IMG/VR virus record: IMGVR_UViG_3300025122_000006
Direction: 5' to 3' (one strand)
Source: a virus
DNA length: 64,000 nucleotides
Shown here: in pieces, positions 283 through 63,933 of the stretch
Layout: the number at the start of each line of letters is the position of its first letter
How positions within the stretch are numbered: the first letter of the stretch is position 1
Position numbers and translations under genes: made by a program
The notes under the pieces: model-generated
The model's input: the letters and a program-made list of their open reading frames with translations, nothing else
Told to the model about the DNA's origin: nothing
The model's database searches: none

Positions 283-1080
283 TCATTGGCGTAACGATGC
301 CGGTTGGAACTCTAAACCAAATTGTGCGGCTTCTTCCACTCCCAGATACTTCCCAAAATAATATTTAATATAAAGATCTTTGGCTGACACGCCATTCGAA
401 GTCATGTAGTCGGGATTTGCTTCAAAATAATCTGCATCTACAGCTACCGTGTACATTTGATACCCCTTGGGGCTCAATTCTTTCGTGTGACTTTTTAATT
501 TAGAGCCGTGATCTGTCGTTGGAGTCAAGTAGTCGCCTAATTCTGCTTTAAAATTTGTAAGATCAACCTTCCCTTTTGTCCCAGATTTTTTTAAACTCTT
601 ATACAATTCCGCAGCTGTTGGTACATCGCCTGCAGCCATGCCAGGAATATCCACCACTCCCGCTGTTTTGTCTGCTGCTACTTTTGCTGCGATGGACCAA
701 GAATCAGGCATTAGTGTATACCATACGCCGTCTATTTCTATTTTTGGATAACTTTGCTCCACGGAAGGGTCATCGCTCCAGTTCCACGCAGTTGGACTCA
801 TTAAAAGTTCCTCAAGTTCAGCAAGTTTTGTTTGGTCCGTATCTAGCTCTTGTAGATTTTGTTGTATTTCAGCCACTGCGGAAGCAATATCGTCAGCTCT
901 CTCGTTTTGAGCAGTCCAGAACATGGCTGCAGCACCAAGTCCGATGCCAATCACAAGATTTCTAAAAGCACTCTCTTCTAGCTTCTCATTATTTTCAAGC
1001 TTCCTAATGGTTTCCAAAAGAACACTTTCAACCTGGCTTTCATTCACAAAGCCGCGCCAATTTTCCATGATCAATTTCAT
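283..1080 (-). CDS. Hypothetical protein with leader variant MKLIMENWRGFVNE and one hydrophobic segment; putative virion cargo
   Basis: ORF with GAGGA RBS; hydrophobic stretch LVIGIGLGAAAMFW; ACTATTTA motif upstream at 1147-1154. Confidence 0.6.
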   Translation of the reverse strand: MKLIMENWRGFVNESQVESVLLETIRKLENNEKLEESAFRNLVIGIGLGAAAMFWTAQNERADDIASAVAEIQQNLQELDTDQTKLAELEELLMSPTAWNWSDDPSVEQSYPKIEIDGVWYTLMPDSWSIAAKVAADKTAGVVDIPGMAAGDVPTAAELYKSLKKSGTKGKVDLTNFKAELGDYLTPTTDHGSKLKSHTKELSPKGYQMYTVAVDADYFEANPDYMTSNGVSAKDLYIKYYFGKYLGVEEAAQFGLEFQPASLRQ

Positions 1081-1097
1081 TTCTTATCCTCATATAT

Positions 1098-1126
1098 AAC
1101 TTAACCCCTTTAGATTTATTTGTCAA
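1098..1126 (-). promoter_or_regulatory. Sigma70-type promoter, weak -10
   Basis: TTGACA-17 nt-TAAGTT on the minus strand. Confidence 0.5.
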
Positions 1127-2040
1127 GTTTTTTCTTCATCATTCTCTAAATAGTTTATAGCCAAAGGTTTATAAACCTGATTTAATAAAATTGTCTTGGT
1201 TGGCCTTTTTATATTGGTATTAACGTTCCCAGCCATAAATTTTTTATATTCTTCCCAGCAACCTATATTCCAATAATCCTTTATTTCAATTTCAGATGCA
1301 GTGCTCGTGTCAAAAGGCGCAAAAACTTTCTCAAGTTCAAAAAATCTCGCCGACCATCTTTCCTCAATTGGAAGAGCCTCATATTCTTTATAATCTACTC
1401 CGGGTTTCCATCTGCCCGTTCCTGTTCTAATAATTTTTCGAAATTCTATGAACTCGTCCTTACCAAAAGTAAAAGATGTGTAGAGGTTGTCTTTCATGTT
1501 TTTCCCTTGCGAAGTTATATAAACATTTTTAGAAGAGGAGATGATCTTCCTATGTTCTCGAAGCTGCCAAGCAGGAAAGTATCCATATGGAAAACTAACG
1601 TAATATTTATTCGGGATAACCCAACGGGAAATCTCATCCGCTATTTTAAAAATAGAAAGGGAGCCGTGTATTACAGACCAGGCAAGACAATCCCTTTTAT
1701 CTCTATCTTTTGGGTGAACAGGGATATAATAAACTGGTATCTGCCTCTTGCTATCATTTGGGAACTTATCAAATTTGCGGTATGCCCAAACAGGATCACC
1801 AACAAAATCTCCTACTTTTTTTCGAACCAGGGGCGAAATATCATTATTACAAATAATCCAAATCGTGTCACAACCAGCCCAAGCGCACTCAGCCACCGCC
1901 GCTTCGAGCAAGGTAAAGTCAGGTGCGATAGGCATCAAGCAATCAGGCCAAAGTTGATCAAAACCCAAAGACTGACCAGCTACAGGAACTATACCTGCTA
2001 AATGGAAGTACTTTGTGTTATCTTCTCTAGTAACTTCCAT
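1123..2040 (-). CDS. Divergent sugar-nucleotidyltransferase-like (GT-A/NTP_transferase fold) protein
   Basis: N-terminal LAGIVPVAGQSLGF...PDCLMPIA...LLEAAVAECAWAGCDTIWII and C-terminal YWNIGCWEEY resemble the NTP-transferase pattern, but the GxGTR/PK catalytic residues are altered. Confidence 0.55.
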   Translation of the reverse strand: MEVTREDNTKYFHLAGIVPVAGQSLGFDQLWPDCLMPIAPDFTLLEAAVAECAWAGCDTIWIICNNDISPLVRKKVGDFVGDPVWAYRKFDKFPNDSKRQIPVYYIPVHPKDRDKRDCLAWSVIHGSLSIFKIADEISRWVIPNKYYVSFPYGYFPAWQLREHRKIISSSKNVYITSQGKNMKDNLYTSFTFGKDEFIEFRKIIRTGTGRWKPGVDYKEYEALPIEERWSARFFELEKVFAPFDTSTASEIEIKDYWNIGCWEEYKKFMAGNVNTNIKRPTKTILLNQVYKPLAINYLENDEEKT

Positions 2041-2795
2041 GTATATCCTTCCATTGTTGGCATATTATAAACATCATTAAAAGAAATTGTTGGTTTAAAA
2101 TGTGGTTTCACAACTCTTTTGTTAAACTCAATAACGGGCGCTATATGTGTTGTCGCGCCTTGAGAATTGTAGCCGGTTACTCTTCCTTTAATGCCGGCTT
2201 TCTTCATCATATTTAATATTTTTAGCCTCGAATAAATAGGAGAAACTTCTAAGTCTTCTATCTCACTATCTCTTAAGAAAGATATCCCAACTATATCTTT
2301 GACATTTTTACTAACCCTAGCTCTTTCGGAAGAATAAAAAATAACTTTCTTAATAAAGTTATCATCTGCATCCTCTATGAACTCTTGTTGGTGGGAACTA
2401 CCCGACCTCCAATCAAAATAATCATAAACATAAAACCAGCCTGTTTCTTCGTCATCAAAAAGATTAATTTGATCGGCCTCTATTAGTATCTTTTGGTTGT
2501 TGTTTGTTACAATCTCTACCTTGTTGTCTTCCATTCTGGCTTTTGAGATATTATTTGGAAACAATAAAAGCCCAGACATGCTTAGTAGAAAACATAATCT
2601 ATCCCATACTTGTTGAGGATTTGCTTGATCAATGCCTAAAAATGAAAAATCATATTTGGAAATTTTATCATCAAATTTAAATGGAGGGCTCGGATCCGTT
2701 AGTATACAGGCTGTTTCTGTTTTAAATGAATGGAGCAGGCAAGTCAAAGTTCTTCCAATATTCAATCTGTTATAATACAAATTTATTTCTTTCAC
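1998..2795 (-). CDS. Hypothetical protein, possibly with a degenerate Rossmann-like N-terminus
   Basis: 265-aa ORF abutting the upstream stop codon; YNRLNIGRTLTCLL is weakly similar to a dinucleotide-binding beta-alpha start. Confidence 0.55.
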   Translation of the reverse strand: MKEINLYYNRLNIGRTLTCLLHSFKTETACILTDPSPPFKFDDKISKYDFSFLGIDQANPQQVWDRLCFLLSMSGLLLFPNNISKARMEDNKVEIVTNNNQKILIEADQINLFDDEETGWFYVYDYFDWRSGSSHQQEFIEDADDNFIKKVIFYSSERARVSKNVKDIVGISFLRDSEIEDLEVSPIYSRLKILNMMKKAGIKGRVTGYNSQGATTHIAPVIEFNKRVVKPHFKPTISFNDVYNMPTMEGYTWKLLEKITQSTSI

Positions 2796-3293
2796 TTATC
2801 CCTCCATAGATTTCTTTAATATCACATAAAACATATCGATACCATCATCGGCTATCCACCAATCCATCATCTGATAGTCTCCAAGATAAGCCACTGGTCT
2901 TTTAAATTTTACATCAGCACGAGGGGCTTTATAGGAATTCAATTCTCCAAAAATCTTCCCAAAAAATTTTTCAAGATATTGCTTATCCTCTTCGGAAATC
3001 TCTTTCAGATATCGATCGACCTTTTCTTGTATAACAAACTCTGCTCCCGCTAAATCAAACCTGATAAGCCATGTATGTGACATTCCGGCTTGAAGCTGTC
3101 CGATTATTTTGTCACCAAGGCCGACCAGGTCATATCCAGCCTTTTCTATCTTCCCCAGGAACACGGTATCTTGTATTGATCTGCTAAAGGCATCGACGAA
3201 TCTTTTTTCAAACCCGCGGTTGCCGTAGGATATCTCAACGGTCTCATCAGTTTCGGAAATAAATTTATTCCATTCTTTTAGTATCTTTTTCAC
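2796..3293 (-). CDS. Hypothetical protein with leader variant (M)KKILKEWNKFISE; putative virion cargo
   Basis: Start moved to GTG at 3293 behind a GAGAGGA RBS; ACTATTTA at 3333-3340. Confidence 0.6.
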   Translation of the reverse strand: MKKILKEWNKFISETDETVEISYGNRGFEKRFVDAFSRSIQDTVFLGKIEKAGYDLVGLGDKIIGQLQAGMSHTWLIRFDLAGAEFVIQEKVDRYLKEISEEDKQYLEKFFGKIFGELNSYKAPRADVKFKRPVAYLGDYQMMDWWIADDGIDMFYVILKKSMEG

Positions 3294-3516
3294 TGTTGGT
3301 AATCCTCTCAAGGAATTCTTCTGGTATATCCATAAATAGTTGACCACAAACTAATATATCATATGCAAAATATTCTGTTTTTTCTGGTAGTGCGTGGAAA
3401 TCATACTCATATAATAACTTTGGTTTAGATGCTATAACACCCACGGATCCAGTTATATATTTAAATAAATCTTGTCCTTGTTCGTTAAATTTAAATAAAT
3501 CTCCCTCCTTAAACAC
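3265..3516 (-). CDS. Hypothetical small protein (KOW/SH3-like start MFKEGDLFKF)
   Basis: AGGAG RBS; overlaps the thyX stop. Confidence 0.55.
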   Translation of the reverse strand: MFKEGDLFKFNEQGQDLFKYITGSVGVIASKPKLLYEYDFHALPEKTEYFAYDILVCGQLFMDIPEEFLERITNSEKDTKRME

Positions 3517-4222
3517 TCCTATGTTTCCTAAAAGCCTTCACAGCGATCGGCCAAAGATCCATTGCAATATCTAAACATGCTAGAGCCACCTCTTGTATCT
3601 CCCACTGGGCTCCTTCATGAGTACGCAAATCAATAAACTTGAGAAGGTTATTCAAATTACACGTTCCATAGTATTCCGTGTACAAGTTCTGTGGTAGAAC
3701 CATCCTGGCCTGTTCGCGACAAATACCCGTCTTCATTAAATGCTTAAACAAAAACTGGCTTCTCTTTACATGGCTTCTGAGTTCTTCTGCACATCTTATT
3801 CCGAAGTCGCTGTTGGACAAATCTGGATACAAAATTGGATTTATCTCATCTTGGTTAGAAGATTGCCTGTTGGACTTATGCTGAGTACGGAATGACATTG
3901 GGCAATAAAAAGCAAGATCTTTATCTGTATATCTTCTGGAAATTTCGTTGTAACTCCAGGTCCTATGTCGCATGTGTTGAGAGCGCACAAAAAGAGGAAC
4001 GATAAACTTAAAGGTAACCACGTTGTGCTCGAACGTGCTCGTGTGTCTGTGTTTAACAAGATAGTTAACAAGTTTCTTATCTCTGTCATCTAGTTCCTCC
4101 TTTTCGACTCCAAATGAAACACGAGCACTGTTCACGATTGTGAGATCAGTGCCCATGTGGTCAATATACTGGACTTTGCCTATATCATCAGAGTATAGGC
4201 TAATTGTTTTTTGATAATCCAT
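3509..4222 (-). CDS. thyX: FAD-dependent thymidylate synthase ThyX
   Basis: Motifs RHRTWSYNEISRRY, HTSTFEH, REQARMVLP and LRTHEGAQWEI. Confidence 0.96.
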   Translation of the reverse strand: MDYQKTISLYSDDIGKVQYIDHMGTDLTIVNSARVSFGVEKEELDDRDKKLVNYLVKHRHTSTFEHNVVTFKFIVPLFVRSQHMRHRTWSYNEISRRYTDKDLAFYCPMSFRTQHKSNRQSSNQDEINPILYPDLSNSDFGIRCAEELRSHVKRSQFLFKHLMKTGICREQARMVLPQNLYTEYYGTCNLNNLLKFIDLRTHEGAQWEIQEVALACLDIAMDLWPIAVKAFRKHRSV

Positions 4223-4902
4223 TATTCCTCCGGGGGCTGATAAGATCTTTCCGCGGAAAATGCTCCGGGCTCTGCACCCATTTGATATTGTGGAGACGGA
4301 TCAAAGAAAGGAATAAAAAACTTTTTTCCACCAATAGCACTAAAATAATCTTGACGCTGTTGCGCAATTTGTCCAGCAACAACAACTTCCCTGTCATCGA
4401 CAGCATAATATTCTTGTGATCCAAATGGCGGATCTTCTGATCCATCAGGCTCTGTTTGATAATAAGTTATTCTAAAATAAGAAGAAGGCTGATCCTCGCG
4501 ATAGCTGCGAATTAATTTTTCTCCGCCAATTACCGCTGCCTGACCAAACTTTTTTCCTAAGTCAATTAAGTCTTGTTTTTTCATATTCAAAACAAAATAA
4601 CTCGTTTCTTCGCCGCCATATTTTCCAGCCAATTCAACATAATCCAGCTTGGCCATATCTAATTTCTTTTTTAAATCAGCCATGCGCTGAGAATTAGAAA
4701 ATTCATCCGCCTCTTCGCCTCTCGGATTTTCTGCTGTCAAAATTCCAAAACGTTGAAGCTCTGTTCTTGGGTTTGGATCTTGTAATCTTTTCAGTACTTC
4801 ATCTAGCGACAAACTTATTTCTTTTTCATGCAACAAAACTGTCACTTCTCTATTTTCTAAAATGATCTTCTTGATCATCGCTTTCAATACTTCCTTATTC
4901 AT
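4222..4902 (-). CDS. DUF3293-like protein with leader MNKEVLKAMIKKIILE; putative virion cargo
   Basis: FGILTAENPRG...N..RMADLKKKL...GKYGGEETSYFV...LGKKFGQAAVI pattern; GGGAGG RBS before ATG 4902; ACTAATTA at 4941-4948. Confidence 0.6.
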   Translation of the reverse strand: MNKEVLKAMIKKIILENREVTVLLHEKEISLSLDEVLKRLQDPNPRTELQRFGILTAENPRGEEADEFSNSQRMADLKKKLDMAKLDYVELAGKYGGEETSYFVLNMKKQDLIDLGKKFGQAAVIGGEKLIRSYREDQPSSYFRITYYQTEPDGSEDPPFGSQEYYAVDDREVVVAGQIAQQRQDYFSAIGGKKFFIPFFDPSPQYQMGAEPGAFSAERSYQPPEE

Positions 4903-5170
4903 CCTGTAACCTCCCATAAACATAATTCTCCAACACTAGGTAATTAGTTGCCCCCATTGCTTTTATCTCCTGGATCATTCTCCTTTCAACGACAATCCTG
5001 TTCCCAACATCTAACGGTATTTTGCAATCAGAAGCAATGCCGAGAATATCACATACGACATACGGAGATTCTGGTGCGGTATACTCATCTGGTAAAACAA
5101 ATTTAACCTTCTCTTTTTCGTCATCTATCGGGAAAATAAGGAGATGTCTGTTGTGTGGCTCAAAATACAT
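4895..5170 (-). CDS. groES: GroES/Cpn10-like co-chaperonin
   Basis: MYFEPHNRHLLIFP...FVLPD...VGNRIVV...YLVLENYVYG matches the Cpn10 layout (PLxDRVLV, ILLP, VGDxV, YLIxxExDIL); about 91 aa; GGAGGA RBS before ATG 5170. Confidence 0.75.
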   Translation of the reverse strand: MYFEPHNRHLLIFPIDDEKEKVKFVLPDEYTAPESPYVVCDILGIASDCKIPLDVGNRIVVERRMIQEIKAMGATNYLVLENYVYGRLQDE

Positions 5171-5209: not shown

Positions 5210-5238
5210 ATTATAACACACCAAAAGGCGGTTGTCAA
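5210..5238 (-). promoter_or_regulatory. Consensus sigma70 promoter for groES
   Basis: TTGACA-17 nt-TATAAT with TG extended -10. Confidence 0.85.
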
Positions 5239-5245
5239 GCAATTA

Positions 5246-5431
5246 TTAATGAGAATTTTTCTTCTGTTGGATTTCAAGTCTTAAAACCTGAAGTTCTTTA
5301 ATCGCAACTAGGGCGGCTTTTCTGGCGCGAGGAGCGGAGGCTTTGTAACCATAGGTTCCTGCCTCAACTTTGTCGACGTCAGCCAATATAGACTTTAATT
5401 CCTTTATAATTAGTTCCATTCTTTCTCTCAT
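5246..5431 (-). CDS. Histone H1-like (Hc1-family) small basic protein
   Basis: 61 aa; DVDKVEAG...KASAPRARKAAL.AIKELQVLR resembles the Hc1 core (GNKAAGTRARKASLEL). Confidence 0.6.
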   Translation of the reverse strand: MRERMELIIKELKSILADVDKVEAGTYGYKASAPRARKAALVAIKELQVLRLEIQQKKNSH

Positions 5432-5440
5432 AATTTTCTC

Positions 5441-7294
5441 CTAAAAAATTTCACAAGATCCACCGGCACATGCTAATTCGCCTGACAAATTTGTTTCATC
5501 TTGCTCTTCTATAATTAGATCCAAATCAATACTTTCCATAGAAGTTAATAGATTTTCATACTCTTCCCGAGTGCAGTCCTCAAAAGGAGGCTGAACATAT
5601 GTGTGATTTGTATACGGTAAGACAGATAAGCCGTTATAGCATTTTCTATTCAACCACATCCACTCACCAACAGATTCCCATTCATCCGTTTTGATAGTAA
5701 TAGTGGCTGAAACATTATGAGTATTATGGCCGCTTTGGTGGCCTCCCTTGATCCAAGTATCGCTAACCTTCTTCACCCTATTGAGTAAATCCAAAGCGCT
5801 TTCATGACGCGTTATGGAGCCCTCTGGAGCTTTTTGAGGTACGCCGATGATTGCTGTATCATGCGGCCTGAGTATATCATCTTCGACTAACTGTGGAATG
5901 TTGTTTATGAGATAATTATAAATTGCTTCATTTTTTCCTACACGGATTCTTCTGATATAATAATCATTATGCCATGCATGAATACCAGAAGAAGTGCCCA
6001 AACTTAAAGAAGTTGTTCCGGCCGGCTTAACGCAGGTCGACCGTGCGGCTCGTCTGATTCCAATTTGGTAAGCTACTCTTCTGTTTTCTCTTTTAACTAT
6101 TAAAGATGCCGCTATCATGTCTAAATTCAAAACTCCGCCCGAGGCAATTCCTGTCATTGATACACCTATAAGCGCATCTTTCTCCGTATTACGCTTCCAA
6201 ATAGGCCGAAGGTAATGGAAATCAGTATATGAAGCTTGAAGTGTGCCAATAAAAGTAGCAGCGCGCACCCTATTTTCAAACTCATCTTGGTCGCTGACAT
6301 CGCTTACATTTACCTCCGTAAGATTACAAAATTGATAAGGCCTCAAACCTATTTCACAGCAGGGATTGGTTCCCCAATCTTTGTCGTTTGAAAAATAAAA
6401 TCCGGGCTCTCCTGAGTTCGATGCCTTGACGCGATCCCATATTCTCATAAAAGTAGACCGATCAATACGATGCCGCATGAGTACTACAGAGTTGTTTGCA
6501 CGACCTCGTTGTGGATTGAGTTCCCACCAGTTTCCCGTCTTCGCAGCGAGCATTTCTTCATCGTCAGCAGAGAACAAAGAAATAAGAGCAGCCCTTCGAA
6601 TACCTCCAGCCAAAACTGCATCCGCAATATGGCAGATGATATCATGAACTTCAATGGGAGCGAGTTGATCTCCATTTTCTTTTCCCTCCAGGACGCCCTC
6701 AATCTTTACTAGGCACTCCTTAAGAGGCTGTGCTCCAGGGGCTTTGCCGCCAGAGGTAACTAGTCTTGCGCCCTTTGGGCGAATATCAGAAAAATCAAAT
6801 CTTAATTTTGAAGTTCCCTTAAAGTAGGAAGCAACCAAAGCTTTAACAGCATCAGACCATCCTTCTATTGAATCTCCGATAAGAAATCTTCTACTCCTCG
6901 TCGAGGGCTTTCTAATTTCTAATAGTTTTTCAACATGATGTTTTTGAACGGAAAACCCCACGCCTGTGCCTCCGAGCAACAAAAACATTATTTCACTAAA
7001 TACATGATAATTATCAACAGGAGCGTAAGCACAATTAAAAATACGATTTGGAGACACTTCAATTGGCTTACCTCCGAACTGCATTGATCTCATCGAAGGC
7101 AATACTTTTTTAGTATATACATATTTGTAAGCATTTTTTATCTCTCTTCCGAGCGAGGGGAACTTTTTAATGTGCATCTTCATGTTCCGAGTTACCAGTT
7201 CTTCCCAATTTTCTCGACGATTTTTATCATCAAGGTATCTTGCATATTTCATATGGATGGTTACATCCGATAAAATTTTTTTTTCTAAATCCAT
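5441..7294 (-). CDS. nrdJ: Class II (adenosylcobalamin-dependent) ribonucleotide reductase
   Basis: Motifs FNCAY, GGTGVG, TNPCCEI, CNLTEV and VKPAGTTS, plus C-terminal CAGGSC; no beta-subunit gene adjacent. Confidence 0.92.
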   Translation of the reverse strand: MDLEKKILSDVTIHMKYARYLDDKNRRENWEELVTRNMKMHIKKFPSLGREIKNAYKYVYTKKVLPSMRSMQFGGKPIEVSPNRIFNCAYAPVDNYHVFSEIMFLLLGGTGVGFSVQKHHVEKLLEIRKPSTRSRRFLIGDSIEGWSDAVKALVASYFKGTSKLRFDFSDIRPKGARLVTSGGKAPGAQPLKECLVKIEGVLEGKENGDQLAPIEVHDIICHIADAVLAGGIRRAALISLFSADDEEMLAAKTGNWWELNPQRGRANNSVVLMRHRIDRSTFMRIWDRVKASNSGEPGFYFSNDKDWGTNPCCEIGLRPYQFCNLTEVNVSDVSDQDEFENRVRAATFIGTLQASYTDFHYLRPIWKRNTEKDALIGVSMTGIASGGVLNLDMIAASLIVKRENRRVAYQIGIRRAARSTCVKPAGTTSLSLGTSSGIHAWHNDYYIRRIRVGKNEAIYNYLINNIPQLVEDDILRPHDTAIIGVPQKAPEGSITRHESALDLLNRVKKVSDTWIKGGHQSGHNTHNVSATITIKTDEWESVGEWMWLNRKCYNGLSVLPYTNHTYVQPPFEDCTREEYENLLTSMESIDLDLIIEEQDETNLSGELACAGGSCEIF

Positions 7295-7304
7295 TCGCGT
7301 TCTC

Positions 7305-8660
7305 CTATTTGGCTGATATTTCTTGATATTTCTTTTTCAAGTAAGACAAAGCCTCCGCTGTTGATTGCATGGTATCAACATCTTCATTTCTGTCTAGAAT
7401 TTTAATTGTGACATCCGACCAGTCTACAAAGGTTTGGTATACCATACCATCTGGTCCGTTCCTATTTTTGGCAACAAAGATCCGACCTTTGTTGGCTTGC
7501 TTATCTTGTATTGTTCTAGATAAAGAAAAAATGAAATCTGCTACAAAGCATTTATTAAATGCCTCCGAGATTGCCTCCATTGTTATAACCTCTGCATTGA
7601 GACCACCTCGATTTGTTTGAGAGGCAGTCCAAACGGGAATCTCATGTATCTGAGCGATCGCTCTAAGGTTTTCATAAATTTCTTCTAGTTCATGGCGCTT
7701 CTCTCTGTCAGACCTAGTTGGTCTAAGCAAATCAGCGTAGTCAACATAAATTACATCTGGCTCTATTCCTCTTTTTTTCAATTTTTCAATGTGATTTTTG
7801 ATTGTTTGTACAGAGGCAGATTTTGTGGGATATTCTTTGATGATCAGAGAGCCATCTATATCTTGAATTTTTTCTAAAATTTCTTCTTTTCTTTGTACAT
7901 GTTCATTGAGAGAAATACCTGTTAAGCAGGCATCAAAGCGACTACCGACAACGGTATCCTTAAGCTCCAAGGTATAATACACAACAGTCTTTCCTAGCTT
8001 CAAGGCCTGGCAAGCAAGGTGAACCATTATCATAGATTTTCCTGCGCCTGTTGGAGCTATAACAACACCTAGCTCATTATTGCCCAGGCCGCCCTTGCAA
8101 ATTTCATCCATGCGATCCCAACCAGTTGTAATGGGATTACGATTTATAATCTCAAATCTTGCTAAAGCATCTTTGTGATACTCATGGCCAAAGTTATTAT
8201 CTGTGCCGAGTTTTAATGCACCCTGTATTACTTTTTCAATTTCATCAAACGATGAAGATTTAAGTAATTTGACGGATTTTATCATAGCCTGCTTTAAAAC
8301 CTGCTTACGACAAAAATCAATAGCTTTGTCTTTAACCCATGCGGCTTCTTCAATACCATCGGACGCGTGTATTCTAGCGAAAAAATCTCGAACCTGTTTT
8401 GCGGTTGCTTTATCGTGATGATTAAGTTCTGTCCGCAATAGCGTCATCATTACTCCATGATTTGGATGAGCAGAGTATTTTTCTCTATATTTCATCAGTG
8501 TCTCTATAAATATTTGTAAATATTTTTTTTCAAAGAAATTTATATCCAAAACTTCTGATATTTGATCATAAAAAGGCCTATCCTCGAGCATGAGTTGGCA
8601 CATATTTTCTTGGAATTTTTTTCCAAAACGAGAAAAAGTTTCGTAGTTATTGTTAATCAT
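7305..8660 (-). CDS. dnaB: DnaB/gp41-like replicative helicase
   Basis: Walker A APTGAGKS, YYTLE, YVDYADLL, WTASQTNR and AKNRNGPDG. Confidence 0.93.
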   Translation of the reverse strand: MINNNYETFSRFGKKFQENMCQLMLEDRPFYDQISEVLDINFFEKKYLQIFIETLMKYREKYSAHPNHGVMMTLLRTELNHHDKATAKQVRDFFARIHASDGIEEAAWVKDKAIDFCRKQVLKQAMIKSVKLLKSSSFDEIEKVIQGALKLGTDNNFGHEYHKDALARFEIINRNPITTGWDRMDEICKGGLGNNELGVVIAPTGAGKSMIMVHLACQALKLGKTVVYYTLELKDTVVGSRFDACLTGISLNEHVQRKEEILEKIQDIDGSLIIKEYPTKSASVQTIKNHIEKLKKRGIEPDVIYVDYADLLRPTRSDREKRHELEEIYENLRAIAQIHEIPVWTASQTNRGGLNAEVITMEAISEAFNKCFVADFIFSLSRTIQDKQANKGRIFVAKNRNGPDGMVYQTFVDWSDVTIKILDRNEDVDTMQSTAEALSYLKKKYQEISAK

Positions 8661-32673: not shown

Positions 32674-33501
32674 TTATCGGTTTCCGAAGCCTTGAAGACC
32701 CCATTTTACCTTTTTATAAATAATACCCACTGTACTCGCAGCAGCATGAGCGTGATATCCAAACGGCGTAACAACCTCTCCGTCATCAAACGTAAACGCT
32801 TGAGTAACTGTAGGAGCAACACCATCAATTTTAAAAGTCACAACGCCAGTAGAACTAACATTGACTCTAAATGTATGACTTTCGGTATCCCCCCAATTGT
32901 CAGTAGTGTCAGTGGACGTAGTACCCGCATTGTTCAGGATCGTCCCGGTGTAGATATCGCCGGAGATGCAATTAAGGAACGCTGCTTCATCATAAGCATC
33001 AACATCTTCCGGTTGGAAAGCTTCAACTTTACGGAATCCAAAAGCGACCGTATCTGCATCAGATACATCTGTTAGTTCAAATTCCATTTCCATGTAAAAA
33101 GCTCCGTGAGTACCAACAGTAAACCTATCAACACCAGGATAGCCCTTATGTGTGTTCATACTAGCAACCCATTGAATGCCTTCATTATCAGCAGCATCAT
33201 ATGAATAATCCATACCAGAAGTACTTGCCGCCGGAATTAAAATGGTTTGCCCATTTGTACCACCTTCATGAAGATTCTGTACATGAAGCCTAAGACCATC
33301 TGAATATTGATGAATAACGATAGCATTGTCAGCACCGTCTGCTACTGTAGAGTCATCATCTAAAACAAGTGGCGGTGCGCCAAACGACCCATGACAACCA
33401 CCGACTTCACCACACCAAGTAGAACCCGACATATTGAGTTGTCTTTTCATATTTTCCATTAATGCCTCTATTCTCGCGAGACCCACTCTTTTTGTTCCCA
33501 T
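32674..33501 (-). CDS. Putative capsid decoration / virion protein with a lectin-like beta domain
   Basis: True start MGTKRVGLARIEALMEN at 33501 behind AAGGAGG; beta-rich C-terminus (HTFRVNVSSTGVVTFKIDG); immediately after the capsid gene. Confidence 0.6.
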   Translation of the reverse strand: MGTKRVGLARIEALMENMKRQLNMSGSTWCGEVGGCHGSFGAPPLVLDDDSTVADGADNAIVIHQYSDGLRLHVQNLHEGGTNGQTILIPAASTSGMDYSYDAADNEGIQWVASMNTHKGYPGVDRFTVGTHGAFYMEMEFELTDVSDADTVAFGFRKVEAFQPEDVDAYDEAAFLNCISGDIYTGTILNNAGTTSTDTTDNWGDTESHTFRVNVSSTGVVTFKIDGVAPTVTQAFTFDDGEVVTPFGYHAHAAASTVGIIYKKVKWGLQGFGNR

Positions 33502-44798: not shown

Positions 44799-45407
44799 TT
44801 AATCCCCCAAAATCTTTTTAAATAAATCATTGATACTATTCTCTTTAACCTCACGAAGGCGAGTCGTCATGGAACTTTGGCCACTTGGATAAACATATGC
44901 GTCTGGAGTCGAAGGCTCCGATACTATATCAAAGCAAATCAATTGAAAATCATTCTCAACAACAGTTTGTCCAGCGCTTTCTTTAACAGACCCCAAGCCT
45001 CTAGACGAAATACCAAGTTTAACTCCGGCATTAATAAGATCTTTAAGAATCCGGCCAGAAGGAGTATCGAGAACTTTGAGTTTACCCATCACATTTTTAC
45101 CTTCCCACCAAATATCAGTTGCAATGTGAGAAACATTTTTAAGATTAACAACAGAATCATCCGGGTGATCTAATTCTCCACACGCACGACTGTCTTTAAC
45201 AATCTTCATATAATTATCCATTTCTCTTTTAAGAACTTCATAGGGGTAAACACGACCATTCCCATTTTGTTTATCGGCGGTCTGAAGCTTTCCCGACAAA
45301 TAAAGAACGCCATTTTGCACTTCTCTTCTTTCTTTCTCGGACAGAAGATCTTGGCAAACACCGCCTTCACATAAGGCATAAAATTCTCGTAATAGTTTCT
45401 TTTTCAT
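44799..45407 (-). CDS. Prohead maturation protease (T4 gp21-like)
   Basis: NGNGRVYP, GELDHPD, VSH, LDTPSGRILK and GISSRGLGSV (catalytic Ser), plus FDIVSEPSTPDAY. Confidence 0.95.
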   Translation of the reverse strand: MKKKLLREFYALCEGGVCQDLLSEKERREVQNGVLYLSGKLQTADKQNGNGRVYPYEVLKREMDNYMKIVKDSRACGELDHPDDSVVNLKNVSHIATDIWWEGKNVMGKLKVLDTPSGRILKDLINAGVKLGISSRGLGSVKESAGQTVVENDFQLICFDIVSEPSTPDAYVYPSGQSSMTTRLREVKENSINDLFKKILGD

Positions 45408-45740: not shown

Positions 45741-46056
45741 AATCACCTCCTGATCTCGACGATACTCTCAAACCAAAGTCATCGACGATCATCGAGAGTA
45801 AATAAGTTGTCCCGCTTCCCAAACAAGATAGGCAGAACATATTCCCTAAAGAATATTCAAATGTAAATAGTTCTGTATAGTCATTTATACAAAATAAAAA
45901 CATCGATGCCCAAAAGCCCATGCACAATGTACAGTGAAAAAGCCAAGTCCATTTTTTGCTTGGATCTTTTTTTGGTCTTATATTACTGAAGATAGACCCA
46001 TAGACCAGAATAAAAGTAAGCCCATAAGCAGTCAAAATAAAATTTAATAAATTCAT
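45727..46056 (-). CDS. Membrane protein with a CxxCxGxW motif (DUF1360-like)
   Basis: Three hydrophobic segments; LFHCTLCMGFW; GAGGT RBS. Confidence 0.65.
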   Translation of the reverse strand: MNLLNFILTAYGLTFILVYGSIFSNIRPKKDPSKKWTWLFHCTLCMGFWASMFLFCINDYTELFTFEYSLGNMFCLSCLGSGTTYLLSMIVDDFGLRVSSRSGGDYVDD

Positions 46057-47504: not shown

Positions 47505-47936
47505 TTAATAATCGTAATAGCCACGGCCGCCTTCATCTGGGGCTTCGAAAGCGTCATCCATATCCTCAACTTCTTCGGCAATTTCTTTTGAAAGTTCTTC
47601 GCTTATTCCAACCGTGGTTCCAGGAGGAACCTTGACTTGGCGCATTTTGCCGCCATCGTCTTTCCCGAAGATGCCCTCAAGTTTTAAATCATATCCGGAA
47701 TAGTCTCCTTGCAAAAGATCCATTATATCCAGATCATCAATCATTCCCGTACACTCAATATCAATTGTGTTTCCGGTGTTTAATGTAATCTCAATTGACA
47801 AACATCTACATTCGTCCACCATATCTGGATACTCTACCGTTGCTGATACGGCTTGCAACTGTCCCCCGTCTTCATTAAGGACGCCTTGCATTTCTTCCTT
47901 GATAATTTGTTTTAACTGTTTATTCGTTAATTTCAT
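47505..47936 (-). CDS. Leader-family protein (MKLTNKQLKQIIKEEM), acidic
   Basis: Shared motif; ACTATTTA at 47991-47998, inside the 3' end of the portal gene. Confidence 0.65.
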   Translation of the reverse strand: MKLTNKQLKQIIKEEMQGVLNEDGGQLQAVSATVEYPDMVDECRCLSIEITLNTGNTIDIECTGMIDDLDIMDLLQGDYSGYDLKLEGIFGKDDGGKMRQVKVPPGTTVGISEELSKEIAEEVEDMDDAFEAPDEGGRGYYDY

Positions 47937-53507: not shown

Positions 53508-53901
53508 TGATTTCTCTCACAGAATAATAAGTTCCCAGCGAAGTTCCTGACGCTAGCAAAAAGCCGCCGAAGAAAGCCCACATGGTTTTGTTTGGTTTAA
53601 GTTGTGTTCTCAGAGCCTCAATTTCGGTATCTCGAAGTTCCAATAGAGTTGCGTTCTTTGCTTGTTCTGTTTCCAACTCTGCTTTTAAATAGTCTATTTC
53701 AAGTTGCATTTCCGCTTTTACAATAGAAACTTTCAACTCGGTTTTGATCTCGCATTGCTCAAGGGTCAATTCATTCCCAGCAATAATGTTGGCCACCGCC
53801 TCATCGTTCATTAGACGGCCGCCAAAGGGCGCTACGTCCCCTTCTCGAAGGTGGATGAGCATCGGGTCGGCTAACGCTGTAGAAAGCAAGAATAGTAGCA
53901 T
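53491..53901 (-). CDS. Exported coiled-coil protein with a C-terminal TM helix (spanin-like candidate)
   Basis: Signal peptide MLLFLLSTALA, coiled coil, then WAFFGGFLLASG. Confidence 0.5.
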   Translation of the reverse strand: MLLFLLSTALADPMLIHLREGDVAPFGGRLMNDEAVANIIAGNELTLEQCEIKTELKVSIVKAEMQLEIDYLKAELETEQAKNATLLELRDTEIEALRTQLKPNKTMWAFFGGFLLASGTSLGTYYSVREINENKN

Positions 53902-56454: not shown

Positions 56455-59400
56455 TAGATTTTTACCTTTGCAAAGCCATCTGCTTTTTGAATGTCGATTG
56501 TCTTGTCGACAATATCCTTTAAAGATTCGAGATGGGAAATTAAGAGAACCGTTTTAAATTGGCTTTTAATCATTTGAAGAAGACGAATAAAGCCTTCCAT
56601 ATGATCTTGATCCAATGCTGTTGCTGGTTCGTCAAGAATAAATAGTTCCGATTTTGGTAAATTGGTTACTGAAATCAAAGCAAGGCGGATAGCCATTGAT
56701 GCAATTGTCTTCTCCGCACCAGATCCCATCGACAATGGTCTAGGATCATACTTCGGATGTTTAATATATATTTCTAATTTATTATCAACATTATCAAAGA
56801 AAACTTCAAAGTCCACAATAGTATTAAGCACAGAAGATATCTCTTTGTTAATAATAGGGAGCATTGATTTAATGACCTGATAAGATACGCCATTGGCATG
56901 CATAGCTTGAATATATAAATCATAAGCGATAAATTCTTTTTCAGCGTCATCAATTTGTTTAATATGTTCTTTTGCTTCTTCAATTAAGCGCCGGGTGGAA
57001 CCCTCCTCAGACATGAGAATCATAATCTTCTTGTTACACTTTTCAAGCTCTTCTTGCTTCTTACTCACCGTTAATTTGATTGCCCGAAGGTCTCTTTGTA
57101 AGGATTCCAGATTATCATATGCTTCTTGGTTTTTATAATAGTGCTCAATCTTCGCAAGGGTTTCTTCGATCTCCTTTCCCGTGAGAGCCTTCTTGCTCTC
57201 GTGTGCCTCATTTTGAGCGCGTATTTTTTGTATCTTTGCTTCATTTGTCTTGCTCTTTGTTAATTTATTTTTATAGTCCTCGATTGCATTCTTTACGGAC
57301 TTTATGTCAATCTTGCCAAGGAGTTCGTTATTTAGAAAAATCTCATCATTAACCTCTTCAAGTTTCTCTTGAGACTTTATGATTTCTTTCTTTGCTTTGT
57401 GCGCTTCTTTTACGAACTGGTTATCACAGCAGAATTCACAATTAGGATCGTATTCGTGATCATGAAGCAAATCAATCTTCGCTTGGTAATTGGCAATCTT
57501 TGAGGCTAAATCCCTCTGTCTTATTTTTAATCTACGACCAAGATCGGTCAAGGATTTATGCTGCTCTTGTTGGCCGGTGTACTCATCGAGATTAAAATTA
57601 TCGATAAAGCCTTTTAAACGCTCTTTTAAGGCCACCAAGCCCTTTACATAACTGTCGCCACTCTCAATCGCTTTAGAGATATCCCGCTGGACTTCACGCT
57701 TCTCTTCAAGCATATCAAGAAGAATGCGAATATCTACTGGTTCAGCCCCAATTGATCTTAGCTGTTCTTCTATTATCTTTTGTTCTTCTAGAAGATCCTT
57801 GGTTCTCGCTGCGTGTTTTTCACAAAGGTCAGATTGGTTGGCTATGTCTTCTAAAATTTCAGAAAGAGCTTCTTGATTCCATTTTAGCTTTTTGCGCCAA
57901 TCAACAGAGTTTAAGTGTTTAATCACGCCTTTCTTTTCGGCCGAATCTTTCTTCGCAAGTTTATGTTTTTCCTCAAACATCTTAAGGTCAAGAAACTTCG
58001 CAAGAATTTCTTTGCGCTTTGTTGAGCCTTCATTAATAAAACCAAACGCATCCATCTGGGAAGCCATAGAAGTGATCATAAAGTCATTATAGTTCCCAAA
58101 TGTTTTGCGAATAATTTCGTCTGTTGCATTGCGAGTCATGCCGTTTTTACTTTCGGGATGAATACCCAAAGCATATTTGGTAAAGTCCAACTCTGTCTTT
58201 ACCTCTTTGGTTTCTTTGCCTTTTAATTTTTTCTGATATGTTTCGAGGTTCCTCGTGATCTTGTAGGTATCATCACCGACTCCGATCTCGAGTTGACACT
58301 TAGCCTTTTCGCGATTTTGATTGACGATATGGACATTTTTTCTCTCTCCTTTTGACGTAGTGTTAAACAGCCCAAATAAAGCGGCATCGATGATACTTGA
58401 CTTGCCTGAATAATTTTTGCCGAAAATTCCAACAAGACCATTTAACTTGTCAAAATCAATTTCATTACTTTCGCCGTAGTTAAATAGATTGCTCCATTTC
58501 ATTTTCTTAAGTTTCCAAACAATATTTCTAGAAACATCATCGGTATTTTTAATTTGTCTAGAATATTCGCGGTTGAGTTCTAAAATTCTTTCCAAAATAT
58601 CATCGGTTATTTCTTTATCAGATAAGAACGCTTTGATATATTTTTCTTGAGTATTTTGATCACGCATGTTAATCGCTTTACCATCTTGATGTACAATAGA
58701 CGAATTGGAGTATCCTGCTCGATTAACAAGGTTAATTGAATAAGGACTCCACTTAGCATTAGCATAATCACATGCCCTTCGTAGTTTTATTAAAGGCAAG
58801 TTATAATTTGAAACCAGACGAAGACGGGAATTTTTTGGCACTTTAACTTTTGGTAAAGTACCATTTTGATTGATTTCCACCGTATAAAATGGTCGAGGAG
58901 ACATAAATAATCTTTTTTCAACATTGAAATTTTCTTTATCTCGGATGTCCCACAAGAGGTAACCTTTTCTAAGAGACTCTCCAAAATTCTGCTGAACAGT
59001 GGAACCCGCATACCAGACTCGACCATCTACATCTAACTTTTGCGTCTTATGAATATCACCAAGCATAGCAAAATCGAAATCACGGAATATATCAACATCG
59101 TCCTCACCATTATCAAGACTCCACTCTTCATTAATTTCACATCCCATAATAGCACCATGATAAAGCGCAATATTTACCCTAGATTTATCAGAAGGAGAGA
59201 CCCAGTTGTCTCTATCAAACACAGAGAGGACATTAAGGCAGATAGAATTGTCCAACTGGGTCTCTCCAGAATTTTTTAATAAATTTAAATTGGGATGTTG
59301 TAATGCTTCAATAATCGGTGATATTGCATCCTGCCTATTACCATTCTTAAGATTACCATCATGATTTCCTAAAATAATGAATGTTGGGGCGATATCCGCA

Positions 59401-59659: not shown

Positions 59660-59694
59660 GTATAAAACTTAGTGTTTCCATTTTTTCTTCGAAG

Positions 59695-59778
59695 TAGGGT
59701 CGGAGGGACTTGAACCCTCACGCTCATGCGAGCAACGGATTTTAAGTCCGTTGTGTCTACCAATTCCACCACGACCCC
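59695..59778 (-). tRNA. tRNA-Leu (anticodon UAA); CCA not encoded
   Basis: GGGGTCGTGGTGGAATTGGTAGACACAACGGAC-TTAAAA-TCCGTTGCTCGCATGAGCGTGAGGGTTCAAGTCCCTCCGACCCTA forms a full cloverleaf with a long variable arm, discriminator A and a G1:U72 pair. Confidence 0.95.
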
Positions 59779-60773: not shown

Positions 60774-61661
60774 TTAAACTTCAACTCCGAAGACACTTTC
60801 GACAAGAGGAGGGATTTCTTGTGAGGTTACATAACCATCTCTTCCTGCATGTTCGGGTTGCAAGAGGATGTATCGGGACTTGCCTTCTGTCCACGCAGGG
60901 TGCTTCTCTGATCGGGTTCCCCATAAATCTTCTTGGAGCCCAGACACTATCGTTAGACTTAGTTTCTCTCTGCTGTATTCAGGCGCTAAGTTCTTTATTT
61001 GCAATTTAAACTCTTGCAGAACCCAGGAAGATTCTTTTCCCTTATAAAAACTAAACCAGATGTCCACTGCGGGATAGTCTTTATCTCCCACAAATCTCCT
61101 TCGGGAAATGCTACCATTTCGTACCCCTAAGGTATCCTCATGTATGTATAGCTCCCATCGATTTGGGACACCAAAATCCATACCAAATGTTTGCGTTGCC
61201 ATGCTTAGAATCTCTTGTCTAAAGTTTACAACCTCTCCGACAGTCAATCGCCCAGTATATCCGATATCTTCATTGCCGACAGGAATTTCTGCTTTTTGGA
61301 GTTCTTTCATCATGTCATCAGTGAAAAGAGGACGGGAAGGATAAACCTGAACGCTGTCCATGTCCCAATTAATAATATCAAGTGGTTCGTATAATTGTTC
61401 CTCGGGAAATAAAACTTCTAATGCTCCCCGCGGGGATCCTCCTTTATAAAGGGCGTTCGCCAAAACATATTTTATCTGATTTTGTTGTTCCTCTGACAAA
61501 TCGTCAATCAGAGATTGGTAGAGATCGAGAGCCATTTCAGGAGCGCTTTCAGCAACATTTATGAGGTTGTCGATCTCTTCTTGATCTATGGAAAAAGATT
61601 CTTCTTCATCTTCCAATGCTTCAAGGATTAGTGCTTTTAATGCTATTTCTGTTAACTTCAT
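60774..61661 (-). CDS. Leader-family protein (MKLTEIALKALILEAL), acidic
   Basis: Shared motif; ACTAATTA at 61680-61687. Confidence 0.65.
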   Translation of the reverse strand: MKLTEIALKALILEALEDEEESFSIDQEEIDNLINVAESAPEMALDLYQSLIDDLSEEQQNQIKYVLANALYKGGSPRGALEVLFPEEQLYEPLDIINWDMDSVQVYPSRPLFTDDMMKELQKAEIPVGNEDIGYTGRLTVGEVVNFRQEILSMATQTFGMDFGVPNRWELYIHEDTLGVRNGSISRRRFVGDKDYPAVDIWFSFYKGKESSWVLQEFKLQIKNLAPEYSREKLSLTIVSGLQEDLWGTRSEKHPAWTEGKSRYILLQPEHAGRDGYVTSQEIPPLVESVFGVEV

Positions 61662-61678: not shown

Positions 61679-62227
61679 CTAATTAGTGAAGATTTTCCTT
61701 ATTTGTTCTTCTTTTACGTGGCTTGGAATGAATCTTTCTATAGATTTGTGCTGGGACAAAGCCTCTCGGAACTCTGTTGCAGAAATAAACTCTTCTTGTT
61801 CGTAGAGCGAAGGTACTTGAATGATCTTCGAAGTTACTTCTCGAAAGTGACTTACAAAGCCTGCCTGGTATCCTTCATCTTTGGATGAAACGCCTAAACA
61901 AATCTTGTTTTCGCTTTCTTCATAGTTTTCCTCAGCCCAATCATACACATCTGCGAAAGGGTTCGTATAAGCGCCTCTAGCGCCCTTTCTAGGCTTCGCA
62001 CGTTGATAGACGACCTTGGGGTGCTTGAGGATGCCATAGGCCTCTAGAACGGCTTCTGCTTGCTCTAGAGAGACTTCAAAGTCTTGTCCCGCTTCGCGAA
62101 GCCTATCTCCGCAAAAAACCCTCACCTCAGATACGTGTGGGTTGGTGATGTAGTGCATAAAGAATTTGTAATGCCCTACGTGAGGCGGTTTGAATCCGCC
62201 GGGTATTAATACGGTTAGCTTGGTCAT
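61679..62227 (-). CDS. HxGH-family nucleotidyl/cytidylyltransferase-like protein
   Basis: PGGFKPPHVGH and ISATEFRE; start ATG 62227 behind GGAGGACAC. Confidence 0.8.
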   Translation of the reverse strand: MTKLTVLIPGGFKPPHVGHYKFFMHYITNPHVSEVRVFCGDRLREAGQDFEVSLEQAEAVLEAYGILKHPKVVYQRAKPRKGARGAYTNPFADVYDWAEENYEESENKICLGVSSKDEGYQAGFVSHFREVTSKIIQVPSLYEQEEFISATEFREALSQHKSIERFIPSHVKEEQIRKIFTN

Positions 62228-62254: not shown

Positions 62255-62283
62255 ATTATAACGTGTTAAGAACGATTTGTCAA
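62255..62283 (-). promoter_or_regulatory. Consensus sigma70 promoter
   Basis: TTGACA-17 nt-TATAAT. Confidence 0.85.
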
Positions 62284-62287
62284 GTTT

Positions 62288-62497
62288 TTATTTAGGTGCT
62301 ACCACAGAACCATCTGGCATTTCGTGTGTCCCTGCTGCAGTTCTCGCTTGGATTTCAATAATAGCCATCATGTGTTCTGAGTCCATTCCAGCCTCGAGTG
62401 CTTGGTGTACGGCCGCGGTGAATGCTTCTCCGGGCTCCTGAATTGAATCCAACTCTTCTTTAATAATTCGTTTTAGTTGTTCTGTTGTAATTTTCAT
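62288..62497 (-). CDS. Leader-family protein (MKITTEQLKRIIKEEL)
   Basis: Shared motif; GGAGG RBS in the 3' end of the upstream gene. Confidence 0.65.
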   Translation of the reverse strand: MKITTEQLKRIIKEELDSIQEPGEAFTAAVHQALEAGMDSEHMMAIIEIQARTAAGTHEMPDGSVVAPK

Positions 62498-62501
62498 TAT
62501 A

Positions 62502-63353
62502 CTATAAACCTCCCCTCATTAAGGCTGAATAATTTTCTTCATATTCTGTTTTAAGAACCAATATTAGATCTTCTAGATCCTTCATATAAACATCATCAAA
62601 AATAGGATCTCTTACGACAGTCAGCATTTCTCTGATAATTTGATATTGGTTTCTGAATCCAAAAGGAAACTCTTCCAGATCCTTGGCAATTTTCTCTGCC
62701 TTGGCTGCTTCCTCTGCTTCCTCTTCTTCTTTCCATTTTCGTCTTCTCTCCTCTGCTGCTTTGTCCCACTCTTCTTGTTCCTCAGGTGTTCTCCATGGGA
62801 TAGCTTGTATTAAAGGGCCGGACACACGCTCCAGCAGGGCATCTGCAGGAAGCGACTCTCCCAATAATTTTCGAAAAGGATTTGCTGCCGATAACATGTT
62901 GTACAACCCGCCCACTGCTTTAAAAACCTTTAGGCGACGCGAGATGGCTTGACTCATGGATTTAAAAAAATGTCCCAGACTACTGCCCATTTTTTGTTTA
63001 ATAAGTTCATAATTCTTTTCTTCTCTCTCGGGGGGTGCGTCAAATTTTCCTGCTTTAATGCGATTGTATTTGTCTTTAACTAAATAATACAAATCAACCA
63101 CCCACATATCTCCAGTGGTTTTCGAAGGTCTGGTTGCCGAATGGGACATATCACCTACAAATTCACCACCAGGGTCGAAATCTCGGAGGTCTCGATTAAA
63201 ATAATCTTTTGCAGTTGAAATTAGTTTTCCCGAAAGATCCACTAGTTCTTGTGCCCTAGATAGAAGTTCCGGATTAACATCCTGCTTATCTTCTTCTTTC
63301 AACCACTTATTAAAATTTTCGGTTAATAATTTGAATTCTTCGTGTTTACTCAT
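62502..63353 (-). CDS. Hypothetical protein with leader variant FKLLTENFNKWLKEE
   Basis: GAGGA RBS; ACTATTTA at 63377-63384. Confidence 0.6.
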   Translation of the reverse strand: MSKHEEFKLLTENFNKWLKEEDKQDVNPELLSRAQELVDLSGKLISTAKDYFNRDLRDFDPGGEFVGDMSHSATRPSKTTGDMWVVDLYYLVKDKYNRIKAGKFDAPPEREEKNYELIKQKMGSSLGHFFKSMSQAISRRLKVFKAVGGLYNMLSAANPFRKLLGESLPADALLERVSGPLIQAIPWRTPEEQEEWDKAAEERRRKWKEEEEAEEAAKAEKIAKDLEEFPFGFRNQYQIIREMLTVVRDPIFDDVYMKDLEDLILVLKTEYEENYSALMRGGL

Positions 63354-63394
63354 TTAAATTTTCCTCTTGGACTCTTTAAATAGTCCCTAGGAAA

Positions 63395-63904: not shown

Positions 63905-63933
63905 ATTATAACATGTTATGAAAGGTTTGTCAA
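63905..63933 (-). promoter_or_regulatory. Consensus sigma70 promoter, positioned to give a leaderless ruvC mRNA
   Basis: TTGACA-17 nt-TATAAT-6 nt-ATG, with no RBS. Confidence 0.8.

Follow-up and report, generated by a model that had tools for sequence, protein, structure and literature searches.

A putative late-promoter motif before leader genes stranded among the early genes of an uncultured marine phage

What is a motif that otherwise marks virion genes doing in front of genes embedded among the replication and nucleotide-metabolism genes of a phage? The question is raised by the virus record IMGVR_UViG_3300025122_000006, of which a stretch of 64,000 nucleotides (nt), hereafter the window, was analyzed. 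The motif is the 8-base-pair (8-bp) sequence ACTAWTTA (W = A or T), and the genes in question, three of which lie between positions 283 and 4948, encode proteins with a short amphipathic leader joined to unrelated payloads. A first-pass annotation had proposed that each of these stranded genes is transcribed late from its own copy of the motif. We regard it as likely that ACTAWTTA is the late promoter of this phage clade and that it has been placed before leader genes stranded among early genes. We infer from sequence comparison that the motif fires late, that it is read by the sigma factor, and that the leader directs proteins to the capsid.

To judge from its genes, the window derives from an uncultured marine phage of the T4 superfamily. 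The closest cultured relatives of its T4-type large terminase are in Flavobacterium phage immuto (49% identity) and Microcystis phage Mel-JY01 (45%), a megablast search of 24 kilobases (kb) of the window against cultured phages returned no matches, and the DNA sequencing runs that contain the window sequence are marine metagenomes. One further run, possibly of RNA, gave two contigs over 3455-4723, which carry no information on transcript starts or timing. All called genes except two short open reading frames (ORFs) are carried on the minus strand, as are the motif sites, promoters, cargo genes, and protease gene for which window coordinates are given below. The virion genes include those for the portal, major head protein, tail sheath, tail tube, tape measure, and neck protein; the genes of replication and metabolism include those for ThyX, a class II ribonucleotide reductase, a primase, and a RuvC-like protein. 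Comparisons were made with G001, a complete 191.7-kb relative found through its DUF3293 gene (∼70% protein identity), and with about 90 related marine contigs (labeled L003, L004, L022, etc.).

The ACTAWTTA motif before virion genes

ACTAWTTA occurs 23 times in the window, compared with 6.7 ± 2.5 occurrences expected from shuffled sequences, and 21 of the 23 matches lie on the coding (minus) strand, both plus-strand matches being palindromic overlaps. The 7-mer core, CTAWTTA, shows no overall enrichment (33 matches versus 28 expected); its strand split, however, is 30 coding to 3 opposite (binomial p about 1e-6), and the corresponding split in G001 is 61:17. Most of the coding-strand 8-mers (15 of 21) have a gene start no more than 81 nt downstream (p about 7e-12). 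Among the genes preceded by the motif are those for the tail sheath (29378), tail tube (26458), tape measure (24072), and neck protein (32016), as well as genes starting at 36829 (the gene before the major head protein), 43809, and 32364. The virion block has ten motif copies located 17 to 34 nt before starts, one of them at about 53 nt, and in three of the ten, a terminator hairpin stands directly upstream, so that a new promoter is needed at these points. In G001, the motif likewise precedes the sheath, the tube, a baseplate wedge gene, and an endolysin gene, and the spacing between motif and start for virion and lysis genes of both genomes is 16 to 43 nt.

A sequence logo built from 30 well-placed sites in the two genomes shows information confined to A-CTAWTTA, with no −35 element. 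When the single-base variants of CTATTTA and CTAATTA were compared, only these two sequences themselves combined the strand bias with a position 10 to 45 nt before starts. Early genes instead have a very regular TTGACA-N17-TATAAT promoter. For example, the enzyme-side gene 4895-5170 is preceded at 5210..5238 by TTGACA, a 17-nt spacer, and TATAAT (12/12 matches, conserved in relatives), and the nucleotidyltransferase-like gene that lies between both leader-gene insertions described below has a consensus promoter, also with 12/12 matches, at 62255..62283. The first-pass annotation was thus right to assign TTGACA/TATAAT promoters to the neighboring enzyme genes, where strong sites of this form are found upstream. 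A comparison of the motif with the Bacteroidetes TAnnTTTG −7 element was rejected: the letters do not match, and the early promoters here are of the TTGACA/TATAAT type.

Two side observations concern promoters placed unusually close to start codons. The consensus early promoter of the RuvC-like gene (63905-63933) stops 6 nt before the ATG at 63898 and no ribosome site is present, as is also the case in L105 and L107, and the product of this promoter looks like a leaderless early message. In the gene family whose products begin with MKKKLKFKKLL or MSIAVKRYKKL, ACTAWTTA stands just 4 to 7 nt before the ATG in L024, G001 (123671), L073, L096, and L054, in two sequence contexts; these would be leaderless late messages if transcription starts about 6 nt past the motif.

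Leader genes and the motif copies before them

About 16 leader genes are present in the 64 kb of the window. Ten ORFs have N termini resembling MKLTKEQLKQIIKEELE, the canonical (MKLTKEQLKQIIKEE) leader, and score 40 to 53 bits, compared with at most 7.6 bits for all other ORFs, under a matrix built from the same ten ORFs that it scores; the matrix also picks further leader genes in G001. A second type, here called type B and of the form K-I-L-K-E-W-K-x-F-L-x-E, is found in ORFs 1080, 3293, and 63353 and heads several unrelated payload families in relatives. Leaders of both types end with an (L/I)-x-E motif, the form of a gp21 cleavage site, represented by IKE and ELE in canonical leaders and by ISE, LKE, and LNE in type B, a statement of motif presence only. 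In relatives, 86 leader genes representing 32 payload families were found near ThyX.

The canonical MKLTKEQLKQIIKEE leader is absent from ORFs 1080, 3293, and 4902, and the first-pass description of all three as leader-bearing is acceptable with the qualification that none is canonical: the first two are type B and the third is degenerate. The cargo gene at 283..1080 has the type-B N-terminal sequence MKLIMENWRGFVNE, and that at 2796..3293 starts with VKKILKEWNKFISE, an N-terminal module also attached to several unrelated payload families in relatives. The DUF3293 cargo gene at 4222..4902 (Pfam DUF3293, E = 6.5e-14) begins with the degenerate leader MNKEVLKAMIKKIILE; the automatic matrix misses this MNKE...ILENR leader of the 4902 group, whose class was assigned by homology, homologs in relatives starting with the canonical MKLTKxLLKEM. 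At the other end of the window are a cargo gene with a canonical-type leader, MKLTEIALKALILEALE (60774..61661), and a run of two leader genes (62288..63353), composed of a type-B gene (62502-63353) and a canonical one (62288-62497).

The leader is probably a capsid-targeting propeptide that the prohead protease removes. The enzyme expected to cut it, a T4 gp21-type prohead core serine protease, is encoded at 44799..45407 (Pfam Peptidase_S77, E = 1.8e-32). As a separate observation, L105 has at 5565-7699, behind one motif, three leader genes in tandem that differ in payload and share a nearly identical MKLTEAKLKALILE leader, an arrangement that suggests duplication or recombination via the leader-coding DNA.

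The link between the motif and the leader genes, the central proposal of the first-pass annotation, is borne out by the counts. In the early regions of the window, a motif is found within 80 nt upstream of 5 of 6 leader genes and of 0 of 17 other genes (p = 1.8e-4, hand count), and among leader genes, a motif at this distance is present in 5 of 6 in early regions compared with 1 of 10 in the late region (p = 0.008). In a set of 708 unique gene starts from 84 related ThyX-neighborhood loci, the motif stands upstream of 45 of 80 leader genes compared with 39 of 628 other genes (odds ratio 19, p = 3e-26, a gene-level value that overstates the evidence since these loci are phylogenetically non-independent); at the level of payload families, it is found in 8 of 26 leader families and 11 of 224 others (p = 1.6e-4). 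Enzyme genes of the related loci hardly ever have it upstream (dnaB, 0/25; RNase H, 0/11; ThyX, 3/67). A whole-window Fisher test of leader genes against all other genes was not significant (5/14 versus 8/59, p = 0.11), because structural genes carry the motif too; the informative comparisons set leader genes against enzyme genes, and early regions against late ones. The claim that every stranded leader gene has its own promoter proved too strong. The motif is found within 200 nt of 50 of 76 leader genes that are first in a run and of 0 of 10 that come later in one, that is, there is one motif per run.

The five stranded sites named in the first-pass annotation (1147-1154, 3333-3340, 4941-4948, 61680-61687, and 63377-63384) were all located, on the minus strand. 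It had placed several of them inside the 3′ end of the upstream gene, and this is so for 1147, 3333, and 4941, which fall in codons for NYL, QLF, and TNY, respectively; 61680 spans two last codons and a stop, and 63377 is intergenic.

The last two sites are insertion slots. At 63377..63384, an intergenic ACTATTTA lies 23 nt before the ATG at 63353 and heads the two-gene insertion, both genes of which are served by this single motif. The slot, which extends from the RuvC-like gene to the next TTGACA promoter, contains the motif and two leader genes in the window and is empty in four relatives. L106 has a different insertion of a motif plus a leader gene, upstream of its RuvC-like gene. At 61680..61687, 18 nt before the ATG at 61661, the upstream, nucleotidyltransferase-like gene finishes in ACTAATTA, which supplies its final two codons plus the stop (T-N-stop). 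This gene ends with ..IFTN-stop (ACTAATTAG) in the window and in three relatives with one to three leader genes before the primase gene, whereas in L106, with zero leader genes in the primase slot, it ends with ..IFS-stop, fused to the TTGACA of the primase promoter. In three independent presence/absence cases, the motif travels with the leader gene or genes. The notion of an insertable cassette of promoter, leader, and payload is upheld by these three insertion slots but not by 3333 and 4941, where the promoter sits in conserved codons of the upstream gene.

Motif copies of the latter kind could be by-products of AT-rich codons that specify the conserved NYL, LF, and TNY peptides, with no role for the leader genes downstream, and all three coding-sequence copies (1147, 3333, and 4941) do lie within conserved C-terminal peptides. 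The sequences of relatives make this explanation very improbable. At 4941..4948, 38 nt before the ATG at 4902, ACTAATTA occupies the last codons (T-N-Y) of the upstream gene, in the setting of a conserved segment, Y-L-V-L-E-N-Y, at the gene end. The window's group spells the motif ACT-AAT-TAy (T-N-Y); in more distant groups it lies 4 nt farther downstream, in a different frame, and reads xxC-TAT-TTA (x-Y-L). The first residue of this second version varies (N, H, Y, I, F, or A) and is invariably specified by a codon ending in C, though the genome favors T-ending ones, and Tyr and Leu codons nearby are invariant inside the motif and vary freely outside it. The motif is therefore kept in two frames through unpreferred codons, and it is lost without the leader gene: it is present in 35 of 35 lineages in which the DUF3293/leader gene comes next compared with 3 of 10 in which ThyX or another gene does (p = 2.6e-6).

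A similar pattern is seen at 3333..3340, where ACTATTTA covers codons Q-L-F of the upstream ORF 3265-3516, 39 nt upstream of the GTG at 3293. Almost every lineage in which a leader gene comes next writes this Leu as CTA, a codon that accounts for 11% of Leu codons; about eleven of twenty such lineages have the full motif and the others have CTACTTA, CTAGTTA, or CTATATA. The motif is found in none of three lineages that lack a leader gene in the slot. For example, the peptide GRLFKEIP is encoded with CTA-TTT in L004, where a leader gene follows, and with TTG-TTC in L026, where none does, and the peptide ELIKM is encoded with CTA-ATT in L057 and TTG-ATT in L083, which has no leader gene. Codon choice for the same peptides thus departs from the motif exactly where the leader gene is absent.

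The by-product explanation also has to contend with the conservation of the motif throughout the window. All ten alignable coding-strand copies are kept between the window and G001 (10/10; p about 1e-6), compared with a baseline in which a 7-mer is identical in 22 to 25% of cases with agreeing amino acids. The synonymous variants TTATTTA and CTTATTA are kept in 1 of 7 and 0 of 4 cases, respectively.

Insertion behind an existing motif is illustrated by a side observation from the late operon. A motif in the 3′ end of the portal gene (47991-47998) is conserved in G001, where the leader gene 47936 (47505-47945) is missing and the next gene start is also 54 nt away. A leader gene, it appears, can be inserted behind a preexisting promoter.

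Points against the late-promoter reading and its alternatives

The evidence that weighs against the late-promoter reading concerns the copy at 1147, early transcription of the stranded genes, conserved copies far from gene starts, and the match to known late promoters and to the sigma factor that would read them; the non-independence of the related loci, mentioned above, is a further such point.

At 1147..1154, ACTATTTA covers codons N-Y-L within the 3′ end of ORF 1123-2040 and stands 66 nt upstream of the ATG at 1080. Here, the by-product explanation has evidence in its favor. The NYLE peptide that the motif overlaps is conserved whichever gene follows, and although its Tyr codon is TAT in the three lineages with a homolog of ORF 1080 (window, L022, and L027), in lineages with another gene downstream the codon is TAT in 3 and TAC in 4. 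In addition, a sigma70-like promoter of ORF 1080's own (1098..1126; TTGACA, 17 nt, TAAGTT) lies between the motif and the ATG, its −35 element overlapping the stop of ORF 1123-2040. The function of the 1147 copy as a late promoter is therefore doubtful, and the earlier suggestion that TTGACA promoters belong to enzymes, correct for the enzyme neighbors, fails for ORF 1080. In L022, L027, and L003, its homologs carry TTGACA-N17-TACATT or TAACTT at this position, the TACATT form being the better promoter sequence, and the L003 promoter holds a second ACTAATTA inside its spacer. Genes of this type seem to have both early and late signals.

The promoters of ORF 1080 and its homologs, including the L003 motif nested in the promoter spacer, also favor the possibility that the stranded leader genes are expressed during the whole of infection, with read-through from TTGACA promoters supplying the early transcripts and the motif the late ones. 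Early read-through is possible because no terminator-like site separates the early genes from leader genes 63353, 61661, 4902, and 3293. The T4 record offers a parallel, in that ipI, ipII, and ipIII are each directly preceded by an early-type sequence, GTTTAC...TATATT, with no TATAAATA, the T4 late promoter, within 110 nt; gene e, which lies upstream, has two TATAAATA copies. Read-through sufficient for these genes would, however, leave no selection for a late motif at the stranded sites, and 9 of 10 leader genes in late operons lack the motif. We consider production throughout infection unlikely, if less so than the other alternatives; it would refine the late-promoter reading.

Several CTAWTTA copies are far from any start (58481-58487, 53686-53692, 50151-50157, and 45864-45870; 227 to 2095 nt from the next start) and are nevertheless letter-identical in G001. 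These copies may act as internal late promoters or serve some other purpose, and those at 58481, 53686, and 50151 are not explained by a picture of one promoter per gene. Conserved mid-gene copies would be accommodated if the motif were strand specific and selected without being a promoter, for example, as an RNA processing or stabilizing site, a translation enhancer, or an oriented recombination, replication, or packaging signal; its fixed orientation and spacing of 17 to 39 nt before starts would suit an element of the messenger RNA as well. Several copies, however, stand directly after intrinsic terminator hairpins, beyond the reach of upstream transcripts, the motif resembles the −10 element of gp55-type promoters in a clade with a gp55-family gene, and its purging from the antisense strand fits the avoidance of spurious promoters. 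These features leave a non-promoter role with little probability. The conservation of every copy and the near absence of antisense copies fit a promoter so short that each copy counts. One conserved ACTATTTA, in the 3′ part of a gp46/47-like early gene (56639..56646), lies 184 nt before 56454, the first gene of a leader-gene cluster, and is a candidate embedded late promoter.

Two further features were noted in this neighborhood and beside the reductase gene. A tRNA-Leu(TAA) gene (59694-59778) lies between the primase gene and the gp46/47-like gene. The gene at 5246-5431 resembles histone H1/Hc1 (Pfam Hc1, E = 1.8e-4, under the gathering score) and has CTAATTA (5512-5518) 80 nt upstream, within the reductase gene; the spacing is 23 to 31 nt in some relatives. 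Its product could be a late DNA-condensing protein.

As to the sequence of the motif, it differs at two positions from TATAAATA and from CTAAATA, the late promoters of T4 and of the Aeromonas phage Aeh1, and neither known form is enriched here. On the coding strand there are 4 copies of CTAAATA and on the opposite strand 6, and none is near a start.

The candidate sigma factor is a 230-residue protein of G001 whose sole PHROG match is the gp55 late sigma family (G001 32902-33282; L103 1285-1977). Of 50 diverse members of its family, 29 match phrog_234 (best E = 6e-13), the best PDB match of the family profile is T4 gp55 (7d7c_F, E = 0.006), followed by SigA, and hhalign yields an alignment of 139 colinear columns (E = 1e-4, probability 57%). 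The assignment consists of remote profile matches, at that probability, made on a relative of the window. Pairwise BLAST of the protein against T4 gp55 was not significant, nor was hhalign with a shallow alignment; a search of G001 with the T4 gp55 protein, a phrog_12791 search, and a phmmer search of the single protein against PDB gave no match. An AlphaFold model (mean predicted local distance difference test [pLDDT], 56; predicted template modeling score [pTM], 0.35) was too poor for use. Separately, the protein is highly conserved, with 83 to 99% identity among the best 120 of more than 7,900 matches compared with 65 to 86% for ThyX, and it has no Pfam domain or public name.

With these points taken into account, the late-promoter reading can be put as follows. 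ACTAWTTA, with the core CTA[AT]TTA, would be a −10-only late promoter of the same kind as T4 TATAAATA and Aeh1 CTAAATA, read by a phage gp55-family sigma factor on the host RNA polymerase. Leader genes reside mostly in late operons, where a promoter of their own would not be needed. Where a leader gene or run is placed among early replication and nucleotide-metabolism genes, the 8-bp motif 18 to 39 nt before the start would allow it to be transcribed along with the virion genes. The motif could arrive in either of two ways: as part of the inserted segment, as in the intergenic slots at 63377 and 61680, or by being written into synonymous and conservative positions of the codons that end the upstream gene, as at 4941 and 3333.

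An extension of this reading, which we put forward tentatively and rate at somewhat below even, is that accessory genes are exchanged as a self-contained module, consisting of an 8-bp late promoter, a ribosome site, a capsid-address leader, and a payload, that can be inserted in any early operon, while selection also writes the promoter into synonymous sites of the preceding essential gene, keeps all coding-strand copies, and purges antisense ones. If so, the clade would possess an extensive and rapidly evolving collection of injected proteins, the timing of which does not depend on where their genes lie. Cargo proteins injected by T4 are anti-defense weapons, and the cargo repertoire therefore bears on the arms races between marine phages and their hosts. 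The motif would furnish a testable late-promoter consensus for a clade very common in ocean metagenomes (the gp55-like protein has more than 7,900 close public relatives), a simple sequence criterion by which probable virion-cargo genes could be recognized and their timing predicted, and an example of how a minimal promoter comes to be overprinted on coding sequence once a new gene has arrived downstream. These predictions are bench-testable because the motif and leaders occur in a cultured Flavobacterium phage. A literature search returned no study of the promoters or virion proteins of this phage, immuto. In immuto (L109, NC_055915 113035-126480), aCTATTTAta is found 18 to 19 nt before the portal gene and two neighboring genes, and ORFs begin with MKKSQLRQIIKEAL and MKKSQIVKAVQEVLEE, so that, on sequence grounds, the system extends to an experimentally tractable phage.

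Relation to known late promoters and internal proteins

In T4, the late promoter consists of TATAAATA at positions −13 to −6; its counterpart in Aeh1 is CTAAATA (PMC1524935, PMC2988020). Like the gp55-dependent late promoters of the T4 family, the putative marine promoter is an AT-rich 7- to 8-bp element of the −10 type with no −35 element, is oriented with the late genes, and stands close before ribosome sites, and the marine clade encodes a factor assigned to the gp55 family by remote matches in the relative G001. It differs from both in its consensus, (A)CTA[AT]TTA, the forms TATAAATA and CTAAATA not being enriched.

The internal proteins of T4 bear a common capsid targeting sequence on diverse anti-restriction payloads (PMC3012670, PMC12373910). 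The marine cargo genes resemble IPI, IPII, and IPIII and other T-even internal proteins (MKTYQEFIAE, cut by gp21) in joining unrelated payloads to a short leader that ends with (L/I/V)-x-E. As at T-even internal-protein loci, a gp21-type prohead protease is encoded next to the leader genes and the gene content of the loci varies between relatives. The type-B leader (ORFs 3293, 1080, and 63353) looks more like an expanded version of the T4 sequence MKTYQEFIAE than the canonical MKLTKEQLKQIIKEE leader does. The marine clade differs from T4 in having two leader types and many more such putative cargo genes, scattered into early regions. A further difference lies in the promoters: ipI, ipII, and ipIII of T4 are preceded by early-type promoter sequences, whereas a stranded marine cargo gene or run is headed by the late-type motif. 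What is new here is thus probably a version of the T4-type scheme of late promoters and capsid-targeted cargo in which stranded cargo genes carry a late motif of their own.

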